A stretch of 64,000 nt of DNA from Candidatus Zixiibacteriota bacterium (GTDB taxonomy: Bacteria > Zixibacteria > MSB-5A5 > GN15 > FEB-12). Within the stretch, counting starts at the first letter, position 1, and the number at the start of each line of letters is the position of its first letter. A program made the position numbers and the translations under genes. The stretch is taken from contig JAJRXM010000015.1 in assembly GCA_024276275.1 (NCBI GenBank), positions 18,868-82,867 of the forward strand. The letters are read 5' to 3'. Shown here one piece after another: positions 5,439 to 58,078 of this stretch. The notes under the pieces were generated by a model. It searched no databases. It worked only from the letters and a program-made list of their open reading frames with translations, and was not told where the DNA came from.

Positions 5439-5460
5439 ATTATCAAACCCTCATTTTTAG

Positions 5461-11913: not shown

Positions 11914-14672
11914 ATGATTCAAAAATTTCTTTCAAGATTGAAAATATCTGCATTTGTTTTCACAGTATGTACCTCTCTTTTGTCTATTTCAGCTACCGCT
12001 CAGGAGTCAATTTTTCAACTTGAGAACGGTATGAATGTTATTCTAAAAGAAAGCCACTCATCAGCAATGATAACTTCTATGGTCTTTGTAAGATCAGGGA
12101 GCAAATATGAGTCCGAGTATGAAAATGGAATCACCCATTTTTTAGAGCATCTTCTATTTGATGGTACAGCGAATAAAAGCCGTGAGGAAATTGACGGATC
12201 AATTCGGGATTTAGGCGGTTATATCAACGCTTTTACCAGAAAAGATATAACGGCATATTTGGTACTGCTTCCGAAACAATATATTGACTTTGGAATGACA
12301 ACCCAGATTGATATGCTTTTTAATTCTACTATCCCTTTAGAAGAACTCCCTAAAGAGAGAAAAGTAGTAATAGAGGAAATCAACCGGGATAAAGACTCTC
12401 CGGGTTATGCTGCTGAGAATTTCTTTATTAAAAATGCTTTTGCGGGCACCGATTATAACCGACCTGTTTTAGGCTATAAAGCATTTATAGAAAATATTTC
12501 CCGCGATGCTATTGTGAATTATTATAAAAAGTATTACCGACCTGAAAATATGACTTTATTCGTTATCGGTGATTTTGATTCAGAACAAATGAAAGAAAAA
12601 ATTAAACAAACTTTCGGCTCTGTTATTCTACCAAAACCTAAAGTCATCAATACACCTGATACATCAGCAGTTATTCAAACTGAAAAACCGGAATACCAAC
12701 CTATTTCCGGACAAGTGATGTACGACACAGTTGCTAATGTTCAATCAACATATATTGATTTTTCAATTGAAGCTCCAATTTATTCTGATTCCGACTATAT
12801 TCCTTTGGATCTGCTCTGTATGTACTACAGTATGGATGATATTTCTCCTTTAATGAATGCTCTCAAAGGCGGAGCCGAACCTCTTGCAACTGAAGCATCT
12901 ATCGGTCTCAGTATGTATGCAGATTTTTCCCGTATCAGTCTTTCTGTAGTTACCGATAAAGCAGAAAACAAAGATGCTATTATTGATGTAGTAAAAAACT
13001 TTTTTAAAACCGTCGGGACACATCAGGCTGATATCGAAGCACTAAACGGGATTAAAATTTCTGAAAAAACAAGTAATATATACCTTGCAGAAAAACTACA
13101 TTATTTAGGATTTATGACCGGACCGACTGTTATGACAGCCGGATATGAATTTGTTGAAACTTACTCTGAAAAACTATCTAATACAACTTGGGATAGAGCT
13201 GTCGAAGCAGCCACAAGATATCTATCCAATCCAAACTATATCGCTACCTCTGTTAGGCCTGCCTCAGAAAATGAAAAGAAATTTATTCCGTATGAAATGA
13301 CAGAAGAAACAATAAAATCTTTTTTTGATACTGCGGTTTTTGCATATTACAATCTTGATTCGGGGTTAGTGCTTACCTATCCGACTACCGAAGCGGTTTC
13401 ATTTCAACTGACAGACAATTCGATTTATCATCATGAAAAATTTGATAATGGTATGACTCTCATAATAAAATCAAACCCGAGCAGTCGGGTATTTGCTATG
13501 AATGTTATAGGTAAAAACCGTTCTACCAATGAACCTAGCGACAAAGCCGGAATTACTGATTTTATCAATAGATTACTTGAGAAAGGTACCGCTACTCGTA
13601 ACGCATCGGAACTCTCTCGCGATCTATCTAAGATAGGTGCTAATGTTACGCTGTATGACAACCCGTGGATTCCGTATGATGACCGTTATACATCACGTTC
13701 ATTTTCATTTATGAAATTGGAGACAATAGATGATTTTGCCGAAAAAGGGTTTCATCTTTTTTCCGATATGGTTTTGCTTCCTTCATTTGAAAGCTCAGAG
13801 GTTGAAAATGTACGACGCTCTATGCTTGGTGTCATAGGTCGCAATGCGGTTTCACCAAAAAAACTGGCAAACAAACTTTTTTATGAAACCCTTTGTTCTA
13901 AAGAATATGCTAAACCTATAATGGGAACATCTGAGACTATTTCATCAATTACTGTTGATGATTTAAAAAAACAGCATGACCGTTACTATGCTCCCGATAA
14001 CATGATTATTTCTATTGTTACCAATAAACCGATTGATGAAGTGCGTTCGTGGGTATATCAAAGGTTTGGTCGGCTTGCACCTACTAATGCCGAGTATTTC
14101 ACTCCGAAACGAGCTGAGCCGATTTTTGAGACAAAAGCAGTACACAAAGAACTTGATAAAGAACAGATACAAATTTATATAGGCTCTACTCTACCGGGAG
14201 CAAACCACAAAGATGCTGCTGCAATTAAGATAGCAACATCTATTCTTTCAACACGTCTCTATCTCAATCTTCGAGAAAAACAAGGATTGGCATACTCAGT
14301 CGGAGCCGGTACACAATTTGAAAATAACTTCGGTATCGCTTATTCTGTCATAGGCACACAGGCAGAAAACTATCAAAAAGCAGTTGACGGTATATTATTG
14401 GAAATTGACAAACTCAAACTCGACGGTCCGACAGCGGCTGAACTCAATAAAGCCAAGAATCAAACATGGGGTCGATTAATGTCGGTAAAGTTATCATCTA
14501 TCAATCAGGCGTACTATCTTGCCTGGATGACTTTTTTGGTCGTGAGATAGGAAGTGACCAAAAGTATTTAGATAAATTGGCTAAAATTACAATTGATAAC
14601 ATAAGACGGGTTGCGGCAACATATTTTAAAACTGACGGATATGTTATAGCAACAGCAGGAAAAAAGCTGTAA
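11914..14672 (+). pseudogene. Tandem M16-family zinc peptidase (pitrilysin-like), frameshifted near the 3' end
   Basis: 878-aa ORF with the HFLEHLLFDG (HxxEH) zinc motif and a second M16-like half. At about 14525 the conserved C-terminus (..DDFFGREIGSDQKYLDKLAKITIDNIRRVAATYFKTDGYVIATAGKKL) moves to the frame of ORF 14466..14672. Total length is 3n+2, consistent with a 1-nt deletion in tgg(g)atgac. Confidence 0.85.
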
Positions 14673-16662: not shown

Positions 16663-17880
16663 TTATGATTTTTTCTTGATATTTAAAGCAAATTTTGCCG
16701 CAGGTAATAAGTTTTTACGATTTAAAACTGCCATAACAACCGCTAAAACAAGATAAACTATCATCATTTCATATCGAATAGTATCTACAATCATCTGTGC
16801 CATAAACAAAGCAAGTAAAACATATCCTTCGGTTTTAGAAAACTTAAGATTCATAATAATCAATACAGCAAATAGCGACTGAGCAGCAGTTAGCATAATT
16901 TCACTATGTTGCAAGTCATCAAGTACAAACGGTTCTATGACTCCGCCTGAGATTGCATAGACAAGCGGAATTGTACCGATTAACAATGTCCATTGATTTA
17001 CTTTAGAAGATATTAATGCTTTAATAGCGGAATTAGCAGCACCCCGAAGCGTCCAGGTAGCTGCGATGATAAATTCGGGTGATTCCGAGGCTATCGGTGC
17101 CAACCATTGGACAAGTAAAAACTTGTCTATATTATATGCCTCGCCGAGATGAATTAACGATTCGGTAAACGGTTCGGCGACAAAGAATATAACTCCACCT
17201 GAAAATAAAAACATAACAGCTGTTACAATACGCCGTGGCAAATTTTTCATGTTAGCTACTATTTTCGGAGGACCGACTATTTCAGGCTCTTCGGTTTCCA
17301 TCTGTGCCGCACGACGAGTATATAATCCGAATAGGGTTACTAAAATAACAGTATCAATAAGATTGAGTTCGCCCTTTAGCGGGATTGTAATCGAATATAG
17401 TGATGCCAACAGTAAATAGAAAATTTCAACACGCTGGATTTGATCTAAGACAATCTCTTTTTTCCGTTTGACATAGACATATAAGAAAAGAATAAAGGGC
17501 CATCCCAAACCAACCAATAACCTATTTGCACCTGTCATGTTAGCAATGGCGTAATGATGTGATGCTATTGCTTCCGGTGTAGTTCCATAGGAATTCCAGG
17601 TAAAAACAAAATCGACAGCATATTCAGGAAGAACTGCCAAAAGAGCTAAAATAGCAACTGCGAGAGATTCTGAAATATCTATTTGGACAACCTCGGCAGC
17701 CCATGAGAGCATAAAAGCAGCAGCAAATATGGCAATACCATAAAAGAGTACGCCGATAATAGGTGTCAAATTTCCATGAGTGAGACCGTTATATAACCCC
17801 GGCAGAGAACAACCAATTGCGATAATAAGGGTAATATAAATACCCGGAGTTATTTTATATTTTTCTCGTTGATGTGACAT
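16663..17880 (-). CDS. CaCA-superfamily-like cation antiporter membrane protein
   Basis: 405-aa polytopic protein with two alpha-repeat-like segments (LLAVLPEYAVDFVF and IASESPEFIIAATW) resembling Na+/Ca2+-exchanger family repeats. Confidence 0.5.
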   Translation of the reverse strand: MSHQREKYKITPGIYITLIIAIGCSLPGLYNGLTHGNLTPIIGVLFYGIAIFAAAFMLSWAAEVVQIDISESLAVAILALLAVLPEYAVDFVFTWNSYGTTPEAIASHHYAIANMTGANRLLVGLGWPFILFLYVYVKRKKEIVLDQIQRVEIFYLLLASLYSITIPLKGELNLIDTVILVTLFGLYTRRAAQMETEEPEIVGPPKIVANMKNLPRRIVTAVMFLFSGGVIFFVAEPFTESLIHLGEAYNIDKFLLVQWLAPIASESPEFIIAATWTLRGAANSAIKALISSKVNQWTLLIGTIPLVYAISGGVIEPFVLDDLQHSEIMLTAAQSLFAVLIIMNLKFSKTEGYVLLALFMAQMIVDTIRYEMMIVYLVLAVVMAVLNRKNLLPAAKFALNIKKKS

Positions 17881-18849: not shown

Positions 18850-19287
18850 CTACCCACGTATTACCATGTTTACTATATCTTTTCGCAAGAGAACACCACA
18901 TAGTTTATTATCCGCAGTAGTAACGAATACTCTTCTAATGTCCTTAAAAATCATCATCGCGGCTACTTCGACAATACGGGTTTCCGGCCGAGCAACTTCA
19001 AATTCATCTCGGTACAACTGGGAAACTTTGATTTTATCTTCCTGTTTGAGAAGTTCCTCAAACGGTTCAACATCCATTGAGTAATTCAAATTAGAAATCA
19101 AAGATTTATAATCAGGCAAAGCTGCTTTAATCAAATCCCGGTCGTTGATTACACCTAAAAGATTATTTTGTTCATCAACAACCGCCAACGCCGACAGACG
19201 GTCGTGGAACATTCGGTTGGCAACCTCTTTAAGGGTGTCATCAGGGGTTACAGTAGCCACCGAGTGACGCATTATATCTTTTACCAT
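18850..19287 (-). CDS. CBS-domain pair protein
   Basis: 145 aa with two CBS repeats (LSALAVVDEQNNLLGVINDRDLIKA; RRVFVTTADNKLCGVLLRKDIV). Confidence 0.8.
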   Translation of the reverse strand: MVKDIMRHSVATVTPDDTLKEVANRMFHDRLSALAVVDEQNNLLGVINDRDLIKAALPDYKSLISNLNYSMDVEPFEELLKQEDKIKVSQLYRDEFEVARPETRIVEVAAMMIFKDIRRVFVTTADNKLCGVLLRKDIVNMVIRG

Positions 19288-19290
19288 CAG

Positions 19291-19758
19291 TTATTTGTCA
19301 ACGGTGATATTGGCATCGGCAATAAGTTTTACTAATTCGCACGGTTTTTTTACCGCCATAATTTTGTCTAGATTTCCCTCTATACGCCCAAAACATGCTA
19401 ACCCGGAAAGAGTTTGCAAATAAAGTTTTGCAATAGTAGCAGGAGTCAGAAGCAGACAAATAACATGAACCGGAATAGAGTCAGGCGTTTTTCCCTCTAA
19501 CCCATATGCTGATACACCTATTAAAATATATAGTTCTTTAACCGCATTGGTACGTGCATGCGGAAATGCAAACCCGTGACCATACGATGTGTTTTCTATC
19601 TCTTCACGACTTCTTACAGACTGCAAAACCTCATCGTAATTCAGATTAACACCTTCATTTTTAATAAGCTCTAAAAGCTCAATAATAGCTTCCTCTTTAC
19701 TTCGTGCTTTTAAGTCGATGATAATACGACGCTCCATCAAAAGATTAGCAAGCTTCAT
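19291..19758 (-). CDS. PTS EIIA type-2 domain protein (PtsN-like)
   Basis: 155 aa. The motif REEIENTSYGHGFAFPHART contains the EIIA-2 phosphorylatable His context (G-x-G-x-A-x-P-H). Confidence 0.75.
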   Translation of the reverse strand: MKLANLLMERRIIIDLKARSKEEAIIELLELIKNEGVNLNYDEVLQSVRSREEIENTSYGHGFAFPHARTNAVKELYILIGVSAYGLEGKTPDSIPVHVICLLLTPATIAKLYLQTLSGLACFGRIEGNLDKIMAVKKPCELVKLIADANITVDK

Positions 19759-19817
19759 GATTGAACCTCTTTATTTGCATTCAATATTTTTCGTTTTAAA
19801 AGTGTGGGTGATGCTAC

Positions 19818-20393
19818 TCAGCCCGAGACTAAAAACTTTACTCCCTCCTCGACTGTCATTTCCAATGGGATGACATCTTCTTTTGGTACAATAATAACCA
19901 TCCCCGAAATAGGAGTTGGTGTTGAGGGCACAAATACTGTTACGTAATCACCTTTTGTTTCAATTTCCAGCCTGTTGGATAAAAAGCTGACAGTGTATGC
20001 ACCTTTACGAGGATATTCCACTAAAACAACTTCCTGAAATGAATTCAGCGAAGGTTTTGTAACAGCTTCCAGAAGTTGTTTGGCGGCAGAATATACCGGA
20101 CGTATAATAGGCATTCGTTCTAAAAAATAATCACCCAGGCGATAAAGTTTTGCTCCAATAATATTTCGTGTAAAGAGACCTGCTAAAATTATTAGTAAAA
20201 GAGTAGTAACTAATCCTAACCCCGGAAGCGAATATCCGAATAGATGAACAATGAGAGGTTGAAGTACACCGTCGATAGTCTCAAAAAGGAACTTCATGAC
20301 AATATATGTAAGAATAAACGGAACGACTACAATAACACCAGAGACAAAATGACGTTTAATAGTACTTACAATTTTATTAAATAACATATCCAT
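19818..20393 (-). CDS. DUF502 family membrane protein
   Basis: 191 aa with two N-terminal TM helices, then RMPIIRPVYSAAKQL and FVPSTPTPISGMVIIVPKEDV, matching the DUF502 pattern. Confidence 0.7.
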   Translation of the reverse strand: MDMLFNKIVSTIKRHFVSGVIVVVPFILTYIVMKFLFETIDGVLQPLIVHLFGYSLPGLGLVTTLLLIILAGLFTRNIIGAKLYRLGDYFLERMPIIRPVYSAAKQLLEAVTKPSLNSFQEVVLVEYPRKGAYTVSFLSNRLEIETKGDYVTVFVPSTPTPISGMVIIVPKEDVIPLEMTVEEGVKFLVSG

Positions 20394-20459: not shown

Positions 20460-21983
20460 CTACTTCAATACTGAGAAACTAAAAGCTGTATAGATTTTAT
20501 CAGTAAAATCTAAAATCGGCTCAGGATAAATACCTGTTACAAAGACACCGACCAAACATATAATCAGAACTATCAGAACAGGTTTATTAAATGTCATCGT
20601 ATAGATAGATGCCTCTTTTGTAAAATACATCTGTTTAATAACATTCACATAGTAGTAAAGTGAGAAAACTGAAGTCAACAATCCGACACCTACAAGCCAG
20701 TAAAGCCATTTAAAAGTACCCGGCATAGTCGCCTGGTCGATTGCTGCTGCAAAGACTTTGTATTTTGCCATAAATCCTCCAAGAGGAGGGATACCGGCAA
20801 GAGAAAGCATAAAGATAGAAAGTACGACCGCAAAGAACGGTGATGTCTGAGAAAGTCCTTTATAATTACCGATCTCTGTTGAACCGGTTTTGTCTTCAAA
20901 AACAGTTACGGCAGCGAAAGCTCCCATATTGGCAAACAGATATACAAAAGTATAGAATGCTACCGAAGAAATTCCATGTTCGTTTAAGGCAAGCATACCG
21001 ATCATTATATATCCTGCCTGAGCAATAGATGAATAGGCAAGCATCCGTTTTATGTCGGTCTGTCTGATAGCAACTACATTTCCTATAATCATCGCTACAG
21101 CCGATAAGATACCTACCAGAACTCCCCAATCGTTCGGTTTCATTTCTACTCCGATAAAACCCCATAGCCCGATTAAGAATATCTTTGCAAATGCAACCAG
21201 TCCTGCAGCTTTAGAACCGACCGATAAAAATGCTGCTATCGGTGTCGGAGCACCCTCGTAAACATCAGGAGCCCATTGATGAAACGGAGGTAGTGCAAGT
21301 TTAAAACCGATTCCGGCAAGAATGCATACATTGGCAATTAAGATAGTAAAGCCGATACTCTGATAACTGAGATGAATCGAAGCAATATTGACAGACATTT
21401 GTAAAAGTTTTGTCGTGCCGGACATTCCATATAAAAATGAGAAACCATACAATAGCATTGCCGAAGAAAAAGCACCGATGACAAAATATTTTATACCTGA
21501 TTCTACAGATAGTTTATCATCTTTATAAAATGCCGCTAAAACAAACAGCGGAATTGTTGTAAGTTCTAAACCTATATATAATGAAACTAATTCCTGCGAT
21601 GATGCCAAAAACATCATGCCTACGGTAGAAAATAATATCAATCCGTAAAATTCACCGCGATGGTTCTGCACTTTTTGTTTTGTAATACCAAACGATGACC
21701 CGACCGCCATAAAGGCCGCACCCAAGAAAATAATCTTAAAGAAAATTGCAAGAGGGTCATTGATAAACATTGCTCCAAAAGCGACACCTTCTCCTGTGAC
21801 AGCCAAAAGTCCACCGGCGATAACAATACCTACCAATGCGGTATAGCCGACCAGCGAATCATTTTTACGTGATGAAAATAAATCAACTGTTATGACAACT
21901 AACGCCCATATAAACAGGAATATTTCCGGCGACATTAGCCGAAGTGTTTCAAGAACATTTACTATAGGTAATTGCGGATTCAT
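20460..21983 (-). CDS. nuoN: NADH-quinone oxidoreductase subunit N
   Basis: 507-aa antiporter-like polytopic protein (ND2 family). It is the last gene of the contiguous nuo cluster. Confidence 0.9.
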   Translation of the reverse strand: MNPQLPIVNVLETLRLMSPEIFLFIWALVVITVDLFSSRKNDSLVGYTALVGIVIAGGLLAVTGEGVAFGAMFINDPLAIFFKIIFLGAAFMAVGSSFGITKQKVQNHRGEFYGLILFSTVGMMFLASSQELVSLYIGLELTTIPLFVLAAFYKDDKLSVESGIKYFVIGAFSSAMLLYGFSFLYGMSGTTKLLQMSVNIASIHLSYQSIGFTILIANVCILAGIGFKLALPPFHQWAPDVYEGAPTPIAAFLSVGSKAAGLVAFAKIFLIGLWGFIGVEMKPNDWGVLVGILSAVAMIIGNVVAIRQTDIKRMLAYSSIAQAGYIMIGMLALNEHGISSVAFYTFVYLFANMGAFAAVTVFEDKTGSTEIGNYKGLSQTSPFFAVVLSIFMLSLAGIPPLGGFMAKYKVFAAAIDQATMPGTFKWLYWLVGVGLLTSVFSLYYYVNVIKQMYFTKEASIYTMTFNKPVLIVLIICLVGVFVTGIYPEPILDFTDKIYTAFSFSVLK

Positions 21984-21989
21984 TTATTC

Positions 21990-23471
21990 TTACCTTGACA
22001 TTATCTGCACTAAGTTATCAAGCGTAGCCAGCATTAAATCTGCCAACGGTTTTGGATAGATACCTACTGCTAAAGTTAAAACAGCAAGCGGTAGGACCGT
22101 AAGTAATTCACGTCCGTTGATATCAGTTAATCCGCCCCATTTGGCCATATTAAATTCTCCAAGAAATACATTTTGGAACATGCGTAGCATATATGCGGCA
22201 CCTAAAACAACACCCAAAACTGAAATACCGACTAAGTATTGATTGAGCGAAGAAAAAGCTCCGATAAAAATCATAAATTCAGATACAAAACCAGACATAC
22301 CCGGAAGTCCCAATGCCGCCATCGAGAACATCAACATAAGGGCAGTATAGACAGGAAGCTTGGAACCTAATCCGCCAAAGACAGCAATTTCACGAGTGTG
22401 GGCTCTATCGTACAGGACACCTACCATGAGGAATAATGCCCCGGTAATCAATCCATGTGAAATCATCTGAAACATAACACCGGTGATAGCAGTAACAGAA
22501 TCATACGCGGCAAGGGCCAGCATACAATATCCCATATGAGAAACCGATGAATAAGCGACTAATTTTTTCAAATCTGTTTGTGCCAAAGAAACTAAGGCAC
22601 CATATATAATTCCGATAACACCTAAGACCGCTATCCAAAATGATAACGCTTGAAGAGCATCGGGGAACATCGGCCAGTTAATACGTAGCATCGCATAGGT
22701 ACCCATTTTTAATAGGACACCGGCAAGAATAACCGAGACAGCCGTCGGTGCCTGCACATGAGCATCGGGAAGCCAAGTATGGAACGGCCAGACAGGAACT
22801 TTTATCGCAAAGGCGATAAAGAAGAAGATAAAACAGACCATCTGGAGTGTATACGACATTGCTCCGCCATGCTCTATAAGCTCAAGCATATTTAACGTAT
22901 GTGGTTCCGATGTAAAGTACATTATCAAAATAGCAACAAGCATGAAAATCGAACCGAATAAGGTATATAAGAAAAATTTAATAGCGGCATATTCTTTTCT
23001 CGGTCCGCCCCAAACACCGATTAAGAAATACATCGGTACCAGCATGATTTCCCAAAATACGTAAAAGAGGAAGAAATCAAGAGCTACAAATACACCCATC
23101 ATGCCTGCTTCAAGAAGTAAGAAGAAAGCAAAGTATTCTTTGACTCTAATTTTAATTGAAAAGGATGCTATCAGAGAAATAGTAGACAAAAGACCGGTCA
23201 GAAAAAGCATCGGAACAGAGATACCGTCTACACCCAAGTGATAATTAACATTTAACGAAGGAATCCATGCGAAAGGACCTTCTACATACGCCATCGCGGC
23301 TGTACCGGAAAAGTTTACAAAATAATCGTAGGTGAGCCAAAATGATATAACCATCGGAATTACAGAGATACCGACGGCAGTATACCGAATAAGATTGTCC
23401 TTATCCTTTGGCATGAGCATTACAATTATCATTCCGAGAATCGGAAAAAATATCAATGAACTTAAAACCAT
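21990..23471 (-). CDS. nuoM: NADH-quinone oxidoreductase subunit M
   Basis: 493 aa, ND4 family (..FHTWLPDAHVQAPTAVSVILAGVLLKMG..). Confidence 0.9.
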   Translation of the reverse strand: MVLSSLIFFPILGMIIVMLMPKDKDNLIRYTAVGISVIPMVISFWLTYDYFVNFSGTAAMAYVEGPFAWIPSLNVNYHLGVDGISVPMLFLTGLLSTISLIASFSIKIRVKEYFAFFLLLEAGMMGVFVALDFFLFYVFWEIMLVPMYFLIGVWGGPRKEYAAIKFFLYTLFGSIFMLVAILIMYFTSEPHTLNMLELIEHGGAMSYTLQMVCFIFFFIAFAIKVPVWPFHTWLPDAHVQAPTAVSVILAGVLLKMGTYAMLRINWPMFPDALQALSFWIAVLGVIGIIYGALVSLAQTDLKKLVAYSSVSHMGYCMLALAAYDSVTAITGVMFQMISHGLITGALFLMVGVLYDRAHTREIAVFGGLGSKLPVYTALMLMFSMAALGLPGMSGFVSEFMIFIGAFSSLNQYLVGISVLGVVLGAAYMLRMFQNVFLGEFNMAKWGGLTDINGRELLTVLPLAVLTLAVGIYPKPLADLMLATLDNLVQIMSR

Positions 23472-23498
23472 TATCTACATACCTCCAAAATCAAACTA

Positions 23499-25574
23499 CT
23501 ATTTTTCATTTTCCGACTCCTGATTTTCTTCTGATACAAATCTTGCTGCGACTGAAAGCAAACCTATAGCAGCAATAAACAAAGCTGTCATCATCGGCCA
23601 ATCGAGATCTATATGTGCAATCTCGAATTTTAACAATATCATTACAATTATAAATACCATACTAAAGATCATATAGAACTGCATCCGCCCGGTCTGCAGA
23701 TATTTTAATACCGCAGCCATCATGCGAACTATAAACCCGGCACCGTTAACGGCACCGTCGATAATCCATTTATCAAACCAGAATTTTAAATCAGCCCACC
23801 ACATGGTAAGGACTGCAGTACCATTTACGGCACCGTCGATTACATTTGAATCAAACTTCCACATCAAACGTCCAAATGCCATAATCGGATTTATAATAGT
23901 TGCTTGATATAGTTCATCGAAATACCATTTATTCCAGAAGAGATTATAAAGCGGTTTAAATCTTGCCATCATAACATCGGGAGAAATAGTTTTTTTCATA
24001 TACATGAGATATGCCAAACCGATACCGCTCAAACCGACAAGAGATGATACAATGTAGTTCATCCAGTCGGCGTGGGGATGGTACGGTTCACTATGATACA
24101 AGAACGATGCGAAGCCATGTTTAAGAGCAGGAATACCTGTCCATCCGGCAAAGATTGCCATAAACGCTAAGAAAATAAGAGGGTATGCCATTGTCTTTGG
24201 AGATTCGTGAGCATGTTCGTAACGATGTTCATCACGCGGTTTACCAAAGAATGTAAGGAAACATAAACGCCACATGTAAAATGCTGTCATAAACGCAATA
24301 AGCAAAGTAAGGACTGTGAAAACAGGATGCCCAAATGTTGTAGCAACAATTTCATCTTTAGAGAAGAAACCTGAGGTCAATGGGAATCCCGCTATAGAAA
24401 GTGAACCTATTAAAAATGCAGGAGCGGTGATTTTCATTTTTTTCCAAAGACCACCCATCTCCATAATATCGTTGGTATGCACGGCATGAATAACAGAACC
24501 TGCCCCCATAAAGAGAAGCGATTTAAAGAATGCGTGGGTCATCAGGTGGAATGTAGCTGCATAGAAACCCGGCGAGTGAATATCATTGGCAGAGTCATAA
24601 CCATACAACCCTAGTGCCATTATCATATAACCGAGTTGGGAAATTGTAGAGTATGCAAGAATTCGTTTAATATCTACCTGTACCAAGGCAATTGTTGCCG
24701 CAAGCAATGATGTTATAACACCTATAATGGCTACAACAAAAGAAGCATCAGCAGAAGCAACAAAGACAGACATTGTGCGGGCAACTAGATAAACACCTGC
24801 TGCAACCATAGTGGCAGAGTGAACAATTGCCGAGACCGGAGTAGGACCTTCCATCGCATCAGGAAGCCAGGTATGAAGCGGGAACTGTGCCGATTTTCCG
24901 ACGGCTCCGCAGAAAACACCGATAGCAAGGATTGTCACCATAACAGGAGGAACAGAACCGGCACCGATAATTGTGAATACTTCAGCAAAGTTAAATGTAC
25001 CGCAATAAAAGGCTATCATCATTAAACCGATAAGAAAACCTAAGTCACCTACCCGTGTAGTCAGGAATGCTTTTTTGCAGGCATCGGCAGCAGATTTTTT
25101 CTCAAACCAGAAACCGATTAACAAATATGATGTCAAGCCTACTAATTCCCAGAATATAAATGTCATAAAGAAATTATCAGAAATCACTAATCCAAGCATT
25201 GAAAATAAGAATAACGAAAGATAGGCAAAGAATCTGCTGAACCGCGGGTCATCTTTCATATACCCTATTGAATAAATCTACACACAGGAACCAATTGATG
25301 TTACAACTACAAGCATCATTGCAGTAAGCGGGTCTATGACCATACCAAGCTGGAGTTTAAAAGTACCGAGTTCTACAATCGAAAAGGCGGCGGTATAGTA
25401 GTCACCATGGCGACTCATAGTCTCTATCAATACAATGATAGACATAATAAGCGAAGTAACAATCATGCTGACAGAAAAAAGTGCGGAAACTTGTTCTTTC
25501 CAACACAGAGCAAAAACAATCATTAAAAATGATAGTAGCGGGAGTAAAACTATAAGATATGCATGTTCAGTCAT
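23499..25574 (-). pseudogene. nuoL: NADH-quinone oxidoreductase subunit L, interrupted by an in-frame TAG
   Basis: ND5 family (HTWLPDAMEGPTPVSAIVHSATMVAAG; long C-terminal helix region). Fragments 25281..25574 and 23499..25259 are in the same frame: ..[30 protein letters not shown].. The TAG at 25278-25280 sits where NuoL homologues have the residue before the conserved (I/M/L)YS..YM. Confidence 0.9.
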
Positions 25575-25584
25575 TTTTTTATTC

Positions 25585-25884
25585 CTACCACTTCATCACA
25601 TTAATATTGTCGTTGCTGATATCCTGCCAGTTGCGGTATAAAAGAAGTACGATAGCTAGTCCGACAACAGCTTCAGCCGCAGCAACAACGATTATGAAAA
25701 GTGAAAACAGCTGACCGATCATTTCGCCCGGCCAGACAAATTTATTAAAAGCTACAAAGTTTATAATTACAGCGTTAAACATTAATTCCAGTGACATCAA
25801 TATGCCGATTATATTCCGACGGGTCAGGACTCCAAAAAGTCCTAAAGCAAAAAGAACCGCCGCAACAGCAATATACGCAACCAT
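25585..25884 (-). CDS. nuoK: NADH-quinone oxidoreductase subunit K
   Basis: 99 aa, three TM helices, ND4L-like, positioned between nuoJ and nuoL. Confidence 0.9.
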   Translation of the reverse strand: MVAYIAVAAVLFALGLFGVLTRRNIIGILMSLELMFNAVIINFVAFNKFVWPGEMIGQLFSLFIIVVAAAEAVVGLAIVLLLYRNWQDISNDNINVMKW

Positions 25885-25885
25885 A

Positions 25886-26455
25886 TTACGACCTTTCCTT
25901 TCTTGCCAGTGCTATAGCACCAATCATTGAGGCAAGCAGCAAAACAGAAACAACTTCAAACGGAAGCATATACTCTGTCATAATATATTTACCTATAATC
26001 AGAATGTTTTCTGTCGGAAGCTGACCTTTGTCTCCAATCCAGAGACCTTTGGTAATAATTTTGTCAGAATTTTTTAAAACAACATTCAGCTTTGTCATAA
26101 TGACCAAAGAGATAGTTCCCAATGCAAATACCGCAGAGATAATTGATACTGTCAAACCGTTTTGGGTTGTCATTGTTTTTTTACCTGAAACATTAGTTGA
26201 AAGCATTATAGCAAATATCATCAGTATCGCCACCGCACCGACATAGATAAGCACTTGTGCGGCAGCTAGAAACTCGGCATTTAAAAGAATAAACAGACCG
26301 GCTACTGAGAATAAACAAAGTATCAGATTTATTGCTGCGTGGAAAATATTTTTCAGAGTTACAACCATAAAACCCGACACAAGCATTGCAATTGATAAAA
26401 GCCAGAAAACAGGTCTTACCGAGAGTTCATTTAATACCGTTTGAAACATATCCAT
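25886..26455 (-). CDS. nuoJ: NADH-quinone oxidoreductase subunit J
   Basis: 189 aa, ND6-like TM protein in the conserved operon position. Confidence 0.85.
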   Translation of the reverse strand: MDMFQTVLNELSVRPVFWLLSIAMLVSGFMVVTLKNIFHAAINLILCLFSVAGLFILLNAEFLAAAQVLIYVGAVAILMIFAIMLSTNVSGKKTMTTQNGLTVSIISAVFALGTISLVIMTKLNVVLKNSDKIITKGLWIGDKGQLPTENILIIGKYIMTEYMLPFEVVSVLLLASMIGAIALARKERS

Positions 26456-26460
26456 AGTTC

Positions 26461-27087
26461 TTATGCCTCTCCCTCGGATTTTGGTTTTTCATCAACCGGT
26501 TTTGTTGTTTCAATTTTATCAGTTTTATTTTCAGTCGCAGACGGTTTCGTTTCTATTTTGTCAGTTTTAATTTCATCAGATTTTGGTTTTGAGTCTACTG
26601 TTTCAGTTGGTTTTGGTGCCACTTTTTTGACTTTTTTCTTTCTTTTGTCAACATAGTCAACATCGCGACCAACATCCTGTAATTTATTTACATCCCAAAG
26701 CAAATCGTCTTTGTTCCCGGTAGAATACTCATACTTACCGGTCAATTTCAAAGCGGAAAAATTGCATGCTTCTTCACAAAGACCACAGTAACAGCAAAGT
26801 GAGAAATCAAGTTCAAACAGTTCTAATTTTTTCTTTTTGTCTTCACCTCTTGGAGCAATAATTCTAATAGCAGCGGTTGGACATGCTCTCATACAAAGTT
26901 CACATGCAGTACAATTAAGAGAACCGTCTTCTTTGTCAGACAACAGCACAACAACACCGCGGGAACGCTCAGGCATTATATCTTTTTCTTCAGGATACTG
27001 TAGGGTAACGGCATGTTTACCGAGATGCTTGCCGGTAATCCCAAGACCTTTAACCAATTCAACTAATCCTTTGATATATCCAAGCAT
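26461..27087 (-). CDS. nuoI: NADH-quinone oxidoreductase subunit I with a K/P/T/E-rich repetitive C-terminal tail
   Basis: Two 4Fe-4S ferredoxin motifs (CTACELCMRACP, CCYCGLCEEACN). The last ~66 aa are low-complexity with the repeat KTDKIET(K/T)KP. Confidence 0.9.
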   Translation of the reverse strand: MLGYIKGLVELVKGLGITGKHLGKHAVTLQYPEEKDIMPERSRGVVVLLSDKEDGSLNCTACELCMRACPTAAIRIIAPRGEDKKKKLELFELDFSLCCYCGLCEEACNFSALKLTGKYEYSTGNKDDLLWDVNKLQDVGRDVDYVDKRKKKVKKVAPKPTETVDSKPKSDEIKTDKIETKPSATENKTDKIETTKPVDEKPKSEGEA

Positions 27088-27090
27088 TTT

Positions 27091-28143
27091 CTATAACTCC
27101 CAGTACCAGCCAAAATGTTTGAATACAGCGGCGATAATTATATTAAGAAATGTAATAGGTACTAACACTTTCCATGCAAATTCCATCAACTGGTCAACCC
27201 GCATACGAGGATAAGTCCATCTGATAAGTATCAGCAAAAAGACTATTGCAAATGTTTTAACAAAGAACCATATAAACGACGGGATAAATTCAAACCCGTG
27301 CCATCCACCGAAAAACAATACAACCGCAATAGCGGAAACTGTAAAGAGGTTAATAAATTCATCTAAAAAGAACATTGCGAATTTCATTCCCGAGTATTCG
27401 ATATTAAATCCCGCAACAAGTTCCTGTTCTGCTTCTGCTAAATCAAACGGTGTTCTGTTTGCTTCGGCAATAGCAGCAATAAGATATGTTAAAAATGCAA
27501 GCGGTCCGAACGGGAAGCGGAAAATATTCCAGTTTAAAAAATTACCGCTTTGAGAATTTACTATATCAACAGTAGAAAGTGACCCGGCAAATAGAACAAC
27601 AACCAAAATCGAGGCTATCATAGGTACTTCATAAGAAACAACCTGTGCCGCCGAACGCATACCGCCTAGGAGTGCATATTTATTATTAGAACCCCACCCT
27701 GCCATCAAGAGAGATATAACAGTAAAGGTTGTAATCGCCATAACATACAGAATACCGATATTCAAATCGGCAACAATTAACCCCTAACCAAATGGAATAA
27801 CAATATATGCCGCAAAGGCAGCTATAAAACATATTACCGGAGCCCAGAAAAAGACCGCTTTATCACGAGTCTCAATAAGGATATCTTCTTTTTGTAAAAG
27901 TTTCAATCCATCTACCAATGTTTGGTACCATCCATGCCACCCGTTACGCATCGGTCCAAACCGTTGCTGCATATGTCCTGCAATTTTTCGTTCCCACCAT
28001 ACTAAGAACAAAGCAATCAACGAAAGCAGACCAAAAGTTGCTACCGCTAAAATTGTATATGTAATAACTGATAACAAACTACCGGACAAACCGCAGGAGC
28101 CTAAAAGTTCTTTCACAGATGTCGCAAGACTTACGGCAATCAT
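27091..28143 (-). pseudogene. nuoH: NADH-quinone oxidoreductase subunit H, interrupted by an in-frame TAG
   Basis: ND1 family. Fragments 27787..28143 and 27091..27783 share one frame: ..AAYIVIPFG*GLIVADLNIGILYVMAITT.. (TAG at 27784-27786), matching the conserved PFG-x-x-x-x-ADLN(I/V)G segment. Confidence 0.9.
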
Positions 28144-29243
28144 CTATCAACCTCCGGAAGGATAACGTCAAACGATGCAAATATCGCTACTAAATCGGCA
28201 ATCAAACAGTCAGTTGCAATTTCAGGAAGAAGTTGTAGATGCGGATATGAACCTCCGCGTGCTTTAACTCGGAAAGGTTTTTTAGTACCGTCTGATACTA
28301 AATAGACACCCATTTAACCGCGTGAATTTTCTATACGGGTATAAGTTTCACCTGCTGCCGGTTTAAAGTTCGGAGATACTTTGGCGCGAATTGGACCTTC
28401 TTCAATACCTTCTAAAGCTTGGGCGACAATTTTACATGATTCCTGAATTTCATCTAAACGAAGCATATATCTATCGAAAACATCACCGTTATGATAGACC
28501 GGAATATTAAAATCAAATCTGTCGTAAATTGAATATGGGTCGTCTCGGCGTAAATCATAATCAATACCGGAAGCTCTTAAAATTGGACCGGAAACGCCGT
28601 AAGCGATAGCAAGGTCAGCATCAAGTTTTCCAATTCCGATAGTACGCATCTTCCAGATAGGGTTTTTATTTAAAAGTCTTTTATATTCTTCAACTTTTTC
28701 AGTAATAGTAGAAATCGTCACTTTACATTGGGGTATAAATTTTTCAGGTATATCTTTTGAAACGCCGCCGACCCGAATATAATTATATGTTAACCGTTGC
28801 CCGCAGGTCATTTCAAAAAGATCCATAATATATTCACGTTCACGGAGTGCATACAAAAACGGTGTTAAAGCGCCGATATCCATGGCAGTAGTACCAAAGA
28901 AAATAAGATGTGAAGCTATTCGGTTAAGCTCAAGCATGATGACCCGAAGATATTCAGCCCGTTCGGGAACTTCGATACCTGACAACCGTTCGGCTGCAAG
29001 TGAAAAGACATAGTTGCATGACATCGCAGTAACATATTCAAACCTGTCAAGAATAGGGATACACATCGCATAGGTTCTGTTTTCGCAAATTTTTTCTATC
29101 GCACGATGCAGATATCCTATATAGGGTACAACTTTGACAACTTTTTCACCATCCATAGTCAACAACAAACGGCAGACACCGTGTGTTGAGGGATGATGCG
29201 GTCCCATATTTATATCAAATTCTTCAGTACGCAAGTCAGTCAT
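28140..29243 (-). pseudogene. nuoD: NADH-quinone oxidoreductase subunit D, interrupted by an in-frame TAA
   Basis: 49-kDa subunit (NMGPHHPSTHGV). The ORF stops at the TAA at 28314-28316, but the frame continues as ..[37 protein letters not shown]...FDVILPEVDR. This is the conserved NuoD C-terminus, with the stop in place of the Glu of the P-R-G-E motif. The real TGA (28140-28142) overlaps the nuoH ATG (ATGA). Confidence 0.9.
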
Positions 29244-29246
29244 CTA

Positions 29247-29717
29247 TTATAAGTCCGGGAAACGAATAAAATCAGGTGCGTCCCAGTCCTTTCTCATCGG
29301 ATAGCCTTCATCCCATTCATCATGGAGAAGGAACCTTGTCAAGTTGTCATGATTGTTTATATGGATACCGTATAATTCCCACATTTCCCGTTCGTACCAA
29401 TTAGCTGCCGGCCAAACCGTCTGAACTGAGTCGATAACAGGATTTTCATGAGGGAGAACAACTTTTATATCTATTCTAATTTTTTTCTTTATTGAACCAA
29501 GATTATATATAGCTTCAAATTTTTCGGTTGTATCGGCACCAGATAAATTGCAGAAATAATCAAACAAAAGCTCAGGATCGTTTTTTAATTTTTCACAAAC
29601 TGTTACCAAATTAACCGCATCTACTTCAAAGAGTAAATCATATTTACCGGCTTCATTATGAGTTAATAAAGAAGTGTAGTTTGTTTCAATATAAGATTTG
29701 AGCTCTTCGTTGGTCAT
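29247..29717 (-). CDS. nuoC: NADH-quinone oxidoreductase subunit C
   Basis: 156 aa, 30-kDa subunit pattern (..WPAANWYEREMWELYGI.F..H..L.R.L), between nuoB and nuoD. Confidence 0.85.
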   Translation of the reverse strand: MTNEELKSYIETNYTSLLTHNEAGKYDLLFEVDAVNLVTVCEKLKNDPELLFDYFCNLSGADTTEKFEAIYNLGSIKKKIRIDIKVVLPHENPVIDSVQTVWPAANWYEREMWELYGIHINNHDNLTRFLLHDEWDEGYPMRKDWDAPDFIRFPDL

Positions 29718-30226
29718 TTTTCCTGCCAGTCAGCCAGTTTACGTTGTTGGATTTGTTTTTGAAGAGTCAAGCAGCCTTCTAATAATGATTCAGGTCTCGG
29801 TGGACATCCCGGGATGAAAACATCAACCGGTATAATATGTTCGATACCTTTTTCAACCGAATAGCTGTCATAATAAAATGGTCCGCCTTTGATAGTACAA
29901 CCACCCATTGCGATAACATAACGAGGTTCAGCCATTTGGTCATAAAGTGTCCGCAGACGAGGTGCCATTTTTTTAGTTATTGTACCGGCAGCAATAATAA
30001 GGTCTGATTGTCGTGGAGATGCCCGGAATATCATACCTAAACGGTCAAAGTCATATCGTGATGCTCCCGTACACATCAGTTCAATGGCACAACAGGCAGT
30101 ACCGAAAAGAAGATACCAGAGAGATTTTGCCTGAGCAAAATTCAGTATTTGTTCTACTGATGTTGTTACAATACCCCCGCCCGGGATTTTTTCCGAGTAA
30201 ATCGGAAGTTTTTTTATTATACCCAT
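29714..30226 (-). CDS. nuoB: NADH-quinone oxidoreductase subunit B
   Basis: 170 aa, PSST/20-kDa subunit with cluster N2 cysteines (GTACCAIE...GGC...IPGCPPRPE). Confidence 0.9.
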
Positions 30227-30572
30227 TTTAATACTCCCTTACGCCAGGCGTAGAATAATCCAAAGAACAATATAAGAATAAAAATTATCATTTCAATTAA
30301 TGCATATAGTCCAAGCCCTCCAAATGCAACTGCCCATGGAAATAAAAATACCGCCTCGACTTCAAAAATAACAAATATCAAAGCAAAAATATAAAAACGG
30401 TTGTTAAAACGAAACCATGAATTACCGACAGGCTCTTCGGCGCATTCATAGTTGGCATTTTTTTGGGGTATGGGTTGTGGGGGCGAATCATTTTTGACAT
30501 AAAAAATGTCATGAGAACAATCCCAACTCCGGCAAAGATAAATACTAAAACGGCCAGATATTCTGCTATCAT
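30217..30572 (-). pseudogene. nuoA: NADH-quinone oxidoreductase subunit A, frameshifted in a homopolymer
   Basis: The N-terminus MIAEYLAVLVFIFAGVGIVLMTFFMSKMIRPHNPYPKK (ORF 30378..30572 frame) joins ..NANYECAEEPVGNSWFRFNNRFYIFALIFVIFEVEAVFLFPWA.. (ORF 30217.. frame) at the A7 run (T7 on the plus strand, 30458-30464). Length is 3n+2, and one extra A restores YPKKNANYEC. Confidence 0.85.
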
Positions 30573-30838: not shown

Positions 30839-32077
30839 CTATTTCTTTTCCACTTTTCTTATAACAAGATATAATCCAATAACTAAAATCGTGAAGATAA
30901 GAGAAGTAACTCCAAGCCCTTTTCGGCGAAAATAGAATTCTTCAATCAGTCCTGCAGAAGTCTCTTTTACTTTTGCAGCTTGTTTCATTCCTTGTTCAGC
31001 TAAAGGTAAAACAGAATCTAAGTTGAAAGAATGTAGTTTAGTACGTGTTTGTATTAACGATTGCTGAAGTTCTTTCATGCTGAACTCAGCATCGGTAGTT
31101 GCCATACCTTTTTCGATTGCCTCATCAAGTACCACTTGTGCTTCAGCATGAGCTTTAACAAGTGATTTGAGGGCTACAGAAATACCAGCGGCAGTTTCTA
31201 TACCTTTGGTTCCGTCATCAACAGAATGACATTCAATACAAAGAGCAGGTTCTTCAGTTCCAACCCATTTGTCTTCCGGTTTTAAAATCTTATGATTAGA
31301 ATGACAAGTCATACACATCGGAAAATCATTTTCCTCGTATGCTTCTTTATGAGGGGAACTATTAAATAGTTCCGATTCAACAGCATGACAGGTACCACAA
31401 ACAGCAATTAATGAAGTAACTCCCGGAGGAGCTGCACCATGATTTCCATGACAATCATTACAGGTCGGAGCCGATAAGTCACCCCGTTCAAATAAAGCTT
31501 GCCCATGTACTGATTCTTTGTAATCAGCAACAGGAGTAGCTTCAAGTCCGTATTTACCCATCAAGTTGCTATCGCTATGACATTTCCCACATGTTTTGGT
31601 AATGTTTAACGGATGTGTACTGGAGTGTGGAAGTTTTGCCGTATTAATCTGATGAACAGAGTGACAAGAAATACAGTTTGCGACATTTGTATCGCCTTTT
31701 TTCAACAACTGTTTACCATGAAATGATGTTTTATACTTTTCAAACTGGTCAGTCGGCATTGCAGGATTATGCTCATGCATATAGGCAGCATCAGAATGAC
31801 AGCTGGCACAGAATTTTGGAACTTCTCTATAAGATGGAACGCCCTTGTATCCTTTTGAGTTGCGAACATCATCCATATCATCAAGCGAGGCATCCCCGCC
31901 GTGACAGTCAACACATCCAAGACCTTTTTGGATATGAACATCTTTTGAAATCATGTGTGAAGGACCGTCATCATCTTCAAAATCTGCATGACATGTCATA
32001 CAGTTATCTTCAGCAGCAGTAACCAATACGGCAGAAAACATACAGATCATGAGATATATGAAACTTTTTTTATACAT
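30839..32077 (-). CDS. Membrane-anchored nonaheme c-type cytochrome
   Basis: 412 aa with a signal peptide and nine CxxCH motifs (CMTCH, CVDCH, CASCH, CISCH, CGKCH, CNDCH, CGTCH, CMTCH, CIECH). It also has a helical region and a C-terminal TM anchor (VTSLIFTILVIGLYLVI). Confidence 0.8.
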   Translation of the reverse strand: MYKKSFIYLMICMFSAVLVTAAEDNCMTCHADFEDDDGPSHMISKDVHIQKGLGCVDCHGGDASLDDMDDVRNSKGYKGVPSYREVPKFCASCHSDAAYMHEHNPAMPTDQFEKYKTSFHGKQLLKKGDTNVANCISCHSVHQINTAKLPHSSTHPLNITKTCGKCHSDSNLMGKYGLEATPVADYKESVHGQALFERGDLSAPTCNDCHGNHGAAPPGVTSLIAVCGTCHAVESELFNSSPHKEAYEENDFPMCMTCHSNHKILKPEDKWVGTEEPALCIECHSVDDGTKGIETAAGISVALKSLVKAHAEAQVVLDEAIEKGMATTDAEFSMKELQQSLIQTRTKLHSFNLDSVLPLAEQGMKQAAKVKETSAGLIEEFYFRRKGLGVTSLIFTILVIGLYLVIRKVEKK

Positions 32078-32086
32078 TGTTATCTC

Positions 32087-33196
32087 CTATTCTACCATGT
32101 ATCCGTAAAGGGTCATAAAAATTATAAATGCTAACACAAAATATCCAAACGCTGTAAACAATTTAGATTTTTGGTCAACTGCTGATTTTTTATCTAAAAA
32201 CGGTACTAAAGCCCAAATTAAACCACCGATGGAAAAGAATATAATCCCAAAATACTCCCCTTCAAGAAAGAGAATATGTGCCGGCAGCATTTTAAGAGCC
32301 TGGAAGGCAAACATAAAATACCATTCGGGACGAATTACTGCAGGCGGAGGTGCAAAAGAATCTGCTTTTTCACCTAACGGCCAGTGAATAACGCCTATAC
32401 CGTCCGGGAAAAATGTTGCAAGAACAGCAATTACATTTAAGACTATCAACCATACTAATACATCACGCAAAATGAAGTTCGGGAAAAACTTCATATATTT
32501 CTTTTCAGCATCAGATTTGTTTACCCAATCAATCGGTTCACTCATACCTTGACGCTGTACCATTATCAAGTGTGCCGATAAAAGAACAGTAAATAAACCT
32601 GGAAGAATCGCAACATGAAGCCCAAAGAAACGTCCGATTGTCGCACCGGTCACTTCTTCACCGCCTCGCATAATAATAAGAAGGTCGTTTCCGATTACCG
32701 GAACTGCTCCAGCCATACCGGTTCCGACCCGTGTAGCAAAAAATGCCAATTCGTTCCAAGGAAGTAAGTATCCCGAGAAACCAAATAAAAGAGATAAACC
32801 AAACAGACCCATACCGGATAACCAGGTTAGTTCTCTCGGTTTGCGATATGCTTTAGTAAAATAGACTGTAAACATGTGTAAGAAAACAAAAAATACCATT
32901 AAATTGGCAGACCATGAATGAACCGCACGAACCAGCCAGCCAAAAGAAACAGTACTCACAATAAACTGTACAGATTCAAAAGCCGAGTCAGCTCCGGGAC
33001 GGTAATACATAAGTAATAAAATTCCGGAAATAACTTGTACTATAAATAGAAACAAAGAAATTCCACCTAAGTAGTAAAAGGTAGAATGTGAATGTTCCGG
33101 GACTACTTTTGTTCCCATGTAATCAACTAAGGCAGATATTTTAAATCGACTATCTACCCAATCAAACATTTTAGAAGAAAGATTTTTATCACTCAT
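32087..33196 (-). CDS. Cytochrome b (fused b6/subunit IV-type) of a bc-type complex
   Basis: 369-aa polytopic protein with conserved His pairs in the N-terminal helices and the Qo-site PEWYF motif (VIRPEWYFMFAFQALK). Its start overlaps the Rieske gene stop. Confidence 0.85.
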   Translation of the reverse strand: MSDKNLSSKMFDWVDSRFKISALVDYMGTKVVPEHSHSTFYYLGGISLFLFIVQVISGILLLMYYRPGADSAFESVQFIVSTVSFGWLVRAVHSWSANLMVFFVFLHMFTVYFTKAYRKPRELTWLSGMGLFGLSLLFGFSGYLLPWNELAFFATRVGTGMAGAVPVIGNDLLIIMRGGEEVTGATIGRFFGLHVAILPGLFTVLLSAHLIMVQRQGMSEPIDWVNKSDAEKKYMKFFPNFILRDVLVWLIVLNVIAVLATFFPDGIGVIHWPLGEKADSFAPPPAVIRPEWYFMFAFQALKMLPAHILFLEGEYFGIIFFSIGGLIWALVPFLDKKSAVDQKSKLFTAFGYFVLAFIIFMTLYGYMVE

Positions 33197-33645
33197 CAGC
33201 TGTCTCCTTTGCTGACAAAGATAGTTTCACCTACTTCTTTCACCTGATACGGTTCAAGCGGACGGGGTGGAGGACCTGAGATATTAGACCCATCCATACC
33301 GTAACGACCATTGTGGCATGAACACCAGATAATTCCTAAATCAGGACGGTGTTGTACAGTACAATCAAGGTGAGTGCAAGTAGCACTTAATGCCATTAGT
33401 TCGTTTGTTTCTGTAAGAAAAATAATTCCCATACTACGGCCATATTTAAAGTATTTAGCTTTTTTCGGCTCACTTTCAATATCAGCTCGGGAAAAAGAAA
33501 GTTTCAGCTGCGACAGTTTTGCTTCTGCTAATTTCGGCGGTGTGATATATTTATATATCGGATAAAACACCGCTACCATTGCAAGGAGAGCAGAACCGCT
33601 TAAAGCTGCTTCAAGAAATCCTCTACGTGATTTTTCTCCTGACAC
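33196..33645 (-). CDS. Rieske [2Fe-2S] subunit
   Basis: 149 aa with a Tat-like N-terminus (SRRGFLEAAL) and a TM helix. Rieske boxes are CTHLDC and CSCHNGRY. Confidence 0.85.
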   Translation of the reverse strand: MSGEKSRRGFLEAALSGSALLAMVAVFYPIYKYITPPKLAEAKLSQLKLSFSRADIESEPKKAKYFKYGRSMGIIFLTETNELMALSATCTHLDCTVQHRPDLGIIWCSCHNGRYGMDGSNISGPPPRPLEPYQVKEVGETIFVSKGDS

Positions 33646-58052: not shown

Positions 58053-58078
58053 GGCAGAAAAAATAAATTGTAAAAAGC

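Follow-up and report, generated by a model that had tools for sequence, protein, structure and literature searches.

The window analysed here, a stretch of 64 kb, contains a complex I operon of 11 genes, nuoABCDHIJKLMN, on the minus strand at 20460-30572. The operon lacks nuoEFG. Its genes were assigned from their translations, and it was collinear with the operons of relatives L001 and L002 at approximately 79% nucleotide identity. The genes are as follows.

20460-21983, minus strand: nuoN
21990-23471, minus strand: nuoM
23499-25574, minus strand: nuoL
25585-25884, minus strand: nuoK
25886-26455, minus strand: nuoJ
26461-27087, minus strand: nuoI
27091-28143, minus strand: nuoH
28140-29243, minus strand: nuoD
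29247-29717, minus strand: nuoC
29714-30226, minus strand: nuoB
30217-30572, minus strand: nuoA

Four of these genes carry a single lesion each.

25278-25280, minus strand: in-frame TAG in nuoL (GSCV*IYSIGYM), at a Glu column in close relatives (GAG in L001, L002, and L003)
27784-27786, minus strand: in-frame TAG in nuoH (PFG*GLIVADLN), at an Asp/Glu/Lys column (GAT in L001 and L002, GAG in L004 and L010)
28314-28316, minus strand: in-frame TAA in nuoD (ENSRG*MGVY), at a Glu column (GAG/GAA in relatives)
30458-30464, minus strand: frameshift in nuoA with one A missing (CCC-AAAAAAA-TG, A7), against an in-frame A8 in L001 and AAAAAGAA in L002

All four had been reported in the preliminary description, and each was recovered at the same position by translating the minus strand. 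The description of the rest of the operon as intact also held. The nuoB, nuoC, nuoI, nuoJ, nuoK, nuoM, and nuoN genes matched their orthologues over the full length, and the overlap of nuoD with nuoH (ATGA) was confirmed in the sequence, as were the cysteine motifs in NuoB and NuoI.

The genomes used for comparison were syntenic Zixibacteria-like MAGs at approximately 79% nucleotide identity. Ancestral states were inferred at this distance because no same-species sequence was found in the collections, in which exact matches to the window proteins came only from the window's own NCBI contig; the closest relatives reached at most approximately 95% amino acid identity. At the nuoD, nuoH, and nuoL stops, relatives encoded Glu, Asp/Glu/Lys, and Glu, respectively, and they carried an in-frame A8 in nuoA. 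The nuoD column was Glu in 52 of 53 aligned loci (Asp in the other one) and in 79 of 79 aligned database homologues. NuoD homologues were near full length (341-372 aa) in all 120 matches listed, none of which ended at the stop of the window. The nuoL column held Glu, Gln, or His over all relatives. In-frame stops occurred at 4 per 6,500 aligned codons in the window versus 2 per approximately 154,000 in the relatives, which is far above chance.

The preliminary description had implied that these lesions are special to nuo. Comparison with the syntenic relatives revealed at least nine others outside the operon, at a comparable density throughout the window.

5214-5216, minus strand: in-frame TAG in a small conserved gene of approximately 125 aa (5070-5450); Glu in L084 (WHVEEYLIVE)
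14519-14521, plus strand: one-base deletion (GG to G) that puts the last approximately 50 codons of an approximately 918-codon gene (11914-14669) out of frame
19291-19293, minus strand: in-frame TAA in a PTS_EIIA_2 and CBS-pair fusion gene (18850-19770), on a domain boundary; GAA/GAG in relatives (Glu 30, Asp 4)
19818-19820, minus strand: in-frame TGA 19 codons short of the natural end of a conserved membrane-protein gene (19761-20393); Gly (GGG/GGT) in relatives
39517-39519, plus strand: in-frame TGA in the gene for a 717-aa repeat protein (37867-40020); Ile/Leu/Val/Phe column in 23 homologues
47128-47130, minus strand: in-frame TAA in the radical SAM domain of a TIGR03960-type gene (45466-47973); Glu in L081 (GAG) and L082 (GAA)
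57336-57342, plus strand: frameshift, probably GGG to GG, in the first of two tandem multiheme cytochrome paralogues (approximately 56.8-58.05 kb)
59356-59358, plus strand: in-frame TAA in the second multiheme cytochrome paralogue (58207-59541), followed in frame by 60 more homologous codons; Glu in the first paralogue (PSIKPGETRIINY)
62466-62468, minus strand: in-frame TAA in a conserved 378-aa gene (61992-63128); Asp (GAT) in L083

The window thus holds at least 13 single-base lesions, comprising 10 in-frame stops and three one-base deletions. An aminotransferase gene at 63160-64000 was rejected as a further broken gene, its apparent truncation being the point at which it crosses the window edge. 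A check of the region 61190-61990 for one more broken gene detected no homology. The nuo operon spans 15.8% of the window and contains 4 of the 13 lesions, which is not a significant enrichment (binomial P(≥4) approximately 0.14). The lesions are not specific to nuo. Its four lesions may well belong to a window-wide scatter of isolated single-nucleotide defects instead of reflecting a state of the operon, an interpretation that we hold with about even confidence. The scatter probably extends genome-wide.

None of the 13 lesions was common to any relative compared; all were private to this assembly, and as many as 70 relatives had a sense codon or an unbroken frame at the sites. It had been proposed that stops shared with related genomes would refute an artefact. 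The ortholog alignment found no such sharing. Truncated products are recorded in NCBI from the 102,036 bp contig, indicating that the lesions belong to the deposited sequence.

The lesion-bearing genes showed no sign of decay. dN/dS was 0.016-0.11 upstream and downstream of the stops alike, mostly similar to or lower than that between L001 and L002. Private deviations at invariant amino acid columns numbered 3 of 1713 in the window (range in relatives, 0-31), and private changes at invariant nucleotides 5 of 3856. Decaying pseudogenes would be expected to have raised dN/dS, too many radical or private substitutions, and lesions inherited with related genomes, and none of these was found. Decay specific to nuo was ruled out by these dN/dS values together with the window-wide survey.

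The lesions shared a mutational signature, which the preliminary description did not mention; nor did it mention that matching missense changes were lacking. A G-to-T change in the first codon position explained nine of the 10 stops (GAR to TAR in eight, GGA to TGA in one), and each of the three frameshifts was the loss of one purine (A8 to A7, GG to G, and GGG to GG). Such G-to-T predominance with one-base purine deletions is the spectrum expected of damaged guanine. All eight in-frame TAA or TAG codons fell at Glu or Asp/Glu columns, and the two TGA codons at one Gly and one Ile/Leu column. From the codon usage of the window, Glu codons provide approximately 12.5% of the single-step changes that create any stop and approximately 17% of those that create TAA or TAG, versus 70% under pure G-to-T change; the GGA-type codon turned into TGA at 19818-19820 also matches the G-to-T prediction. 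The TGA at 39517-39519 was the sole stop not explained in this way. Uniform random error and neutral decay were rejected on the placement of all eight TAR stops at acidic columns with no missense excess. Errors confined to homopolymers were likewise rejected, as two of the three deletions lie in runs of just 2-3 G. A strand-specific C-to-A change on the plus strand only was rejected as well, as the plus-strand gene at 58207-59541 also carries a coding-strand G-to-T change.

With the same codon usage, a context-free G-to-T process predicts approximately six missense changes per stop. However, the window contained 13 G-to-T missense changes versus 15 in L001 and 20 in L002, which is no excess, and the surplus of missense and synonymous over nonsense changes expected of a spectrum blind to reading frame was not found. 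Because the missense excess was not observed, a G-to-T process would need a context preference, and only one of the G-purine type is compatible with the data; the estimated P was approximately 0.02 for G with a purine after it and approximately 0.07 for GAR. No shared methylation-type motif was present around the lesion sites beyond G followed by A or G.

Base changes from G:C to T:A and -1 deletions arise at 8-oxoG and abasic sites under the "A-rule"; they form the spectrum of mutY/mutM mutators and are also a known artefact of library or template damage. The window resembles this spectrum in its nearly exclusive G-to-T changes, in guanines followed by a purine, in its single-purine deletions, and in the indifference of the hits to residue conservation. 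It differs in lacking the larger number of G-to-T missense changes and in the one stop that does not fit. Invariant residues were struck, yet the surrounding sequence kept its constraint, suggesting that the changes went unseen by selection. We infer, at roughly even odds, both a guanine-damage mechanism and an artefactual origin, that is, consensus errors on which selection has not acted. A polymerase would have copied damaged guanines or abasic sites, either placing adenine opposite 8-oxoG or an abasic site, so that G was read as T, or skipping the lesion, so that a purine was lost. The most likely source of such errors would be very few damaged template molecules or a systematic miscall. 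Damage artefacts normally stay at a low allele fraction and reach the consensus only when very few template molecules are sampled, and, for short-read data, a contig of 102 kb speaks against coverage having been extremely low. The absent missense excess and the TGA at 39517-39519 also count against consensus error. In its favor, the MAG of relative L002 bears lesions of the same type, less densely spaced (an AAA-to-TAA change and the loss of an A).

If the lesions are consensus errors, a signature of sequence quality or template damage touches about one gene in five of the assembly. In metabolic reconstructions, complex I, a radical SAM enzyme, and two multiheme cytochromes would then be mistaken for missing or defective, and the truncated products have already been deposited by gene callers.

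Less likely than consensus error, and in our judgment somewhat doubtful, is a real and very recent burst of mutations, due to oxidative or abasic-site damage or to a mutY/mutM-type mutator, in a lineage that was not growing or had passed through a bottleneck. In that case, complex I and roughly one in five genes of the region would be fresh pseudogenes too young to have decayed. The G-to-T and purine-loss signature fits this origin equally well, and the lesions are part of the consensus deposited for a long contig. In bacteria that have recently become host-restricted or bottlenecked, many genes carry a single stop or frameshift each, and the window genes resemble these in having one lesion apiece with sequence and synteny otherwise intact. 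However, the genomes of such bacteria also have elevated dN/dS, abundant missense changes, expanded insertion sequences, and mutations of mixed type, whereas constraint in the window was normal and the mutation type was nearly uniform. Neither missense nor other private changes were in excess, and dN/dS was unchanged. Stops at the invariant Glu of NuoD and in the radical SAM core should also be purged rapidly from a free-living lineage, and a state in which 13 of approximately 58 genes are broken while none shows secondary decay would be an extreme snapshot.

The preliminary description had offered artefact, very recent inactivation, or bypass as explanations. This was the right set of options; its restriction to nuo and the bypass did not withstand the comparison. 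An operon caught at inactivation or rescued by recoding would, if true, represent very recent respiratory gene loss or translational bypass. In one form of this idea, complex I is specifically being lost, with programmed -1 frameshifting or transcriptional slippage at A7 keeping NuoA made. Four lesions inside 10 kb and an A7 tract followed after 5 nt by a hairpin (-16.7 kcal/mol, z = -2.0) are consistent with it. In insect endosymbionts, frameshifts in poly(A) tracts are rescued by transcriptional slippage, and the nuoA A7 is similarly a one-base change of an A run in an otherwise intact gene. In contrast to those cases, the tract is short (7), the frameshifted allele is not conserved in relatives, and the other 12 lesions of the window lie beyond such a rescue. 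In a codon-level alignment, the counterparts of the tract were in frame in the four cleanly aligned relatives, with A8, AAAAAGAA, AAGAAAAA, or GAGAAAAA, and A7 is therefore not a conserved recoding signal. NuoA was continuous across the junction in 47 loci, whereas the window requires two frames. A7, described earlier as a slippage-prone rescue site, is a one-base loss from the A8 or AAAAAGAA of the closest relatives. The hairpin was rejected as a stimulator, as a comparable structure forms in in-frame relatives lacking the slippery run, and no Shine-Dalgarno-like stimulator was present upstream of A7. Together with the lack of a significant excess of nuo lesions and of relaxed constraint in the nuo genes, these results make specific loss of complex I with slippage at A7 very improbable.

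The idea that a Glu-charged suppressor tRNA of the ochre type, with its gene elsewhere in the genome, reads TAA and TAG as glutamate and keeps the genes functional can be largely dismissed: it would account for the eight TAR stops at acidic columns and their absence from every other kind of column, and a frame-aware selective filter would produce the lack of G-to-T missense, but the same codons end 43 of the 51 genes of the window (TAA 28, TAG 15, TGA 8) at the positions used by relatives, just approximately 0.7% of Glu positions are affected, and two TGA stops and three frameshifts are left unaccounted for. The terminator codon was mostly identical to that of relatives, with no depletion of TAA or TAG and no drift toward TGA. 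No tRNA gene was found within the 64-kb window, and searches of the literature on the use of stop codons in Zixibacteria or on a bacterial code that reads UAR as Glu listed no relevant paper. UAR encodes Glu in some eukaryotes (peritrich ciliates and Blastocrithidia), and UGA encodes Gly in bacterial code 25; the TAA/TAG codons at Glu columns and the TGA at a Gly column recall these codes. Unlike in these reassignments, the same codons in the window still end genes at conserved positions, occur at under 1% of Glu codons, include a second TGA at an Ile/Leu column, and are accompanied by no suppressor tRNA within the window. Bypass of the lesions is therefore unsupported, given the normal terminator use of TAA and TAG, the lack of a tRNA in the window, the unconserved nuoA slip site, and the position of the two TGA stops at a Gly and an Ile/Leu column. 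It is equally hard to credit an incipient, partial stop-to-Glu recoding, in which TAR would be near-silent and complex I functional except for nuoA while the same codons still terminate. A nearly pure GAR-to-TAR change without matching missense is nevertheless odd, and the same signature would serve to detect stop-to-Glu recoding.

Translation of the window placed an 11-subunit operon, nuoABCDHIJKLMN, at 20460-30572 on the minus strand. The preliminary description had reported a single lesion in each of nuoA, nuoD, nuoH, and nuoL, and translation reproduced all four at the same positions:

30458-30464, minus strand: frame change in nuoA at CCC-AAAAAAA-TG
28314-28316, minus strand: TAA in nuoD, between ENSRG and MGVY
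27784-27786, minus strand: TAG in nuoH, between PFG and GLIVADLN
25278-25280, minus strand: TAG in nuoL, between GSCV and IYSIGYM

The remaining seven nuo genes matched their orthologues end to end, undamaged as had been described. Truncated forms of NuoD (309 aa plus 57 aa), NuoL (586 aa), and a radical SAM protein (540 aa) are on record from the 102,036 bp NCBI contig, indicating that the lesions are present in the deposited assembly. In NuoI (26461-27087, minus strand), the two 4Fe-4S motifs were followed by a C-terminal tail of approximately 65 aa in which Lys, Glu, Thr, and Pro were abundant; at 212 aa, the orthologue in L001, a locus from a related genome, was about as long. Directly upstream of nuoA (30839-33645, minus strand) were a gene for a 412 aa multiheme cytochrome with many CxxCH motifs, a 369 aa gene, and a Rieske-domain gene. 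These three genes were collinear in relatives, suggesting that a conserved respiratory neighbourhood surrounds the 11-subunit complex I.

Relatives were sought by a NuoM scan with one genome per species, which returned 80 loci; the closest were MAGs labelled Zixibacteria, Calditrichaeota, or Ignavibacteriales. Between 11.9 and 33.5 kb the window was collinear with L001 and a second related locus, L002, at approximately 79% nucleotide identity, and no sequence closer than approximately 95% amino acid identity was found in the collections searched. The column of the nuoD stop was occupied by Glu in 52 of 53 loci and by Asp in one (codons of relatives, GAG/GAA), that of the nuoH stop by Asp, Glu, or Lys in closer relatives (GAT/GAG/AAA), and that of the nuoL stop by Glu, Gln, or His (GAG/GAA/CAA). 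NuoA formed one unbroken alignment across the frameshift junction in 47 loci, and the tract was A8 in L001 and AAAAAGAA in L002. The 120 NuoD homologues among the matches listed from a protein set of 5.8 billion clusters all measured 341-372 aa, close to full length, and none of these ended at the window's stop. The alignment to orthologues called for in the preliminary description was thereby carried out, and relatives had sense codons at the nuo stops. On that description's own criterion, whether related genomes share the stops, these were not inherited.

Lesions, meaning in-frame stops or one-base frameshifts private to this assembly, were also surveyed across the window by comparing it with ORFs taken from stop to stop in syntenic relatives (L001, L002, and L081-L084); one gene was additionally compared with 23 homologues, and another with its tandem paralogue. 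Nine were detected outside nuo:

5214-5216: TAG at a Glu column
approximately 14520: G deletion
19291-19293: TAA at a Glu column
19818-19820: TGA at a Gly column
39517-39519: TGA at an Ile/Leu/Val/Phe column
47128-47130: TAA at a Glu column in a TIGR03960 radical SAM gene
57336-57342: frameshift in a multiheme cytochrome gene
59356-59358: TAA in the tandem paralogue of that multiheme cytochrome gene, where the other copy has Glu
62466-62468: TAA where L083 has Asp

Because the survey was incomplete in places within 1-5 kb and 50-56 kb, the 13 lesions in 64 kb are a minimum. By comparison, relatives had 2 in-frame stops in approximately 154,000 aligned codons. The operon makes up 15.8% of the window and held 4 of the 13 lesions (binomial probability of four or more, approximately 0.14); the lesions themselves are real, but the earlier account of them as peculiar to nuo does not hold.

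The dN/dS check proposed for the flanking intact parts revealed no decay. Between the window and L001, dN/dS was 0.016-0.11 on both the upstream and downstream sides of each stop, in most segments like or below that between L001 and L002. Private deviations affected 3 of 1713 invariant amino acid columns in the window (0-31 in relatives), and private changes affected 5 of 3856 invariant nucleotides (4-21 in relatives). Private amino acid changes against five references numbered 30 in the window, 51 in L001, and 55 in L002, and deep protein alignments showed no excess private change in NuoD, the radical SAM protein, or an MBL-fold protein. These results indicate that the lesions are either very recent or not biological, and that sequence quality is otherwise normal.

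Nine of the ten stops were one G-to-T change at codon position 1 away from a codon present in relatives; eight converted GAA or GAG to TAA or TAG, and one converted a GGA-type codon to TGA. Each of the three frameshifts had lost one purine (A8 to A7, GG to G, and probably GGG to GG). Given the codon usage of the window, Glu codons account for 12.5% of the ways to reach a stop in a single step if all changes are allowed, 44% under strand-symmetric G:C-to-T:A change, and 70% under G-to-T change on the coding strand. Compared with the observed stops, these shares require a guanine-specific process, which acts on more than one DNA strand because an affected gene lies on the plus strand. Lesions of the same kind were found in L002: AAA to TAA at L002 1777-1779, in the homologue of the multiheme cytochrome at window 30839-32077, and a one-A deletion at approximately L002 18670, in the homologue of window 16663-17880. 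In L005, another related locus, an in-frame TAA interrupted the homologue of window 32087-33196 at a Val/Ile column.

Unselected changes are the best fit to the lesions, given the shared signature of G-to-T change and purine loss, the indifference to residue conservation, and the lack of decay. The stops and frameshifts most likely reflect data quality or damage specific to one assembly, and we give about even chances to consensus errors caused by guanine damage, abasic sites, or a systematic miscall. A real, very recent mutational burst ranks next, as a possible but rather doubtful source. One feature is without explanation, namely the near-absence of matching G-to-T missense changes: a context-free process predicts approximately six per stop, whereas the window had 13 in all, no more than L001 (15) or L002 (20), and the two G-to-T events in the window at positions that five references conserve each created a stop. 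A preference for G before purines (estimated P approximately 0.02 for G followed by any purine and 0.07 for GAA/GAG) reduces this conflict.

Reading of UAA and UAG as Glu, which would be a frame-aware filter, would do away with the missense conflict; however, the frameshifts, the pair of TGA stops, and terminator usage all contradict it, and it is highly improbable. Gene terminators in the window occurred in usual proportions (28 TAA, 15 TAG, and 8 TGA) and were common to relatives in position and mostly in codon. The in-frame TGA codons aligned with Gly and with Ile/Leu rather than with a single residue. No tRNA gene was found within the 64 kb window. As for the proposed slippage in nuoA, the A7 run was present, but codon-level alignment to relatives did not identify it as a conserved slippery site. 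A hairpin 5 nt 3' of the run (-16.7 kcal/mol, z = -2.0) also formed in in-frame relatives without an A run, and there was no indication of programmed slippage; incidental polymerase slippage could still occur there.

Several affected genes had features of their own. The tandem multiheme cytochrome paralogues (56800-59541, plus strand; approximately 445 aa each, 69-74% amino acid identity) were both broken. An approximately 800 bp stretch (61190-61990) had no long ORF on either strand and no homology detected by searching, and L083 carried an unrelated 262 aa gene at this position. The gene at 37867-40020 (plus strand), with TGA at an Ile/Leu column, encodes a 717 aa predicted secreted protein of hhhDxxGNDxY repeats, for which Pfam gave no match, although over 1300 homologues were found at E<1e-30. 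At 18850-19770 (minus strand), a PTS_EIIA_2 domain and a CBS pair were fused in all relatives. The TAA in this gene fell exactly at the domain boundary and was followed two codons later by ATG, which would still allow synthesis of two separate polypeptides.
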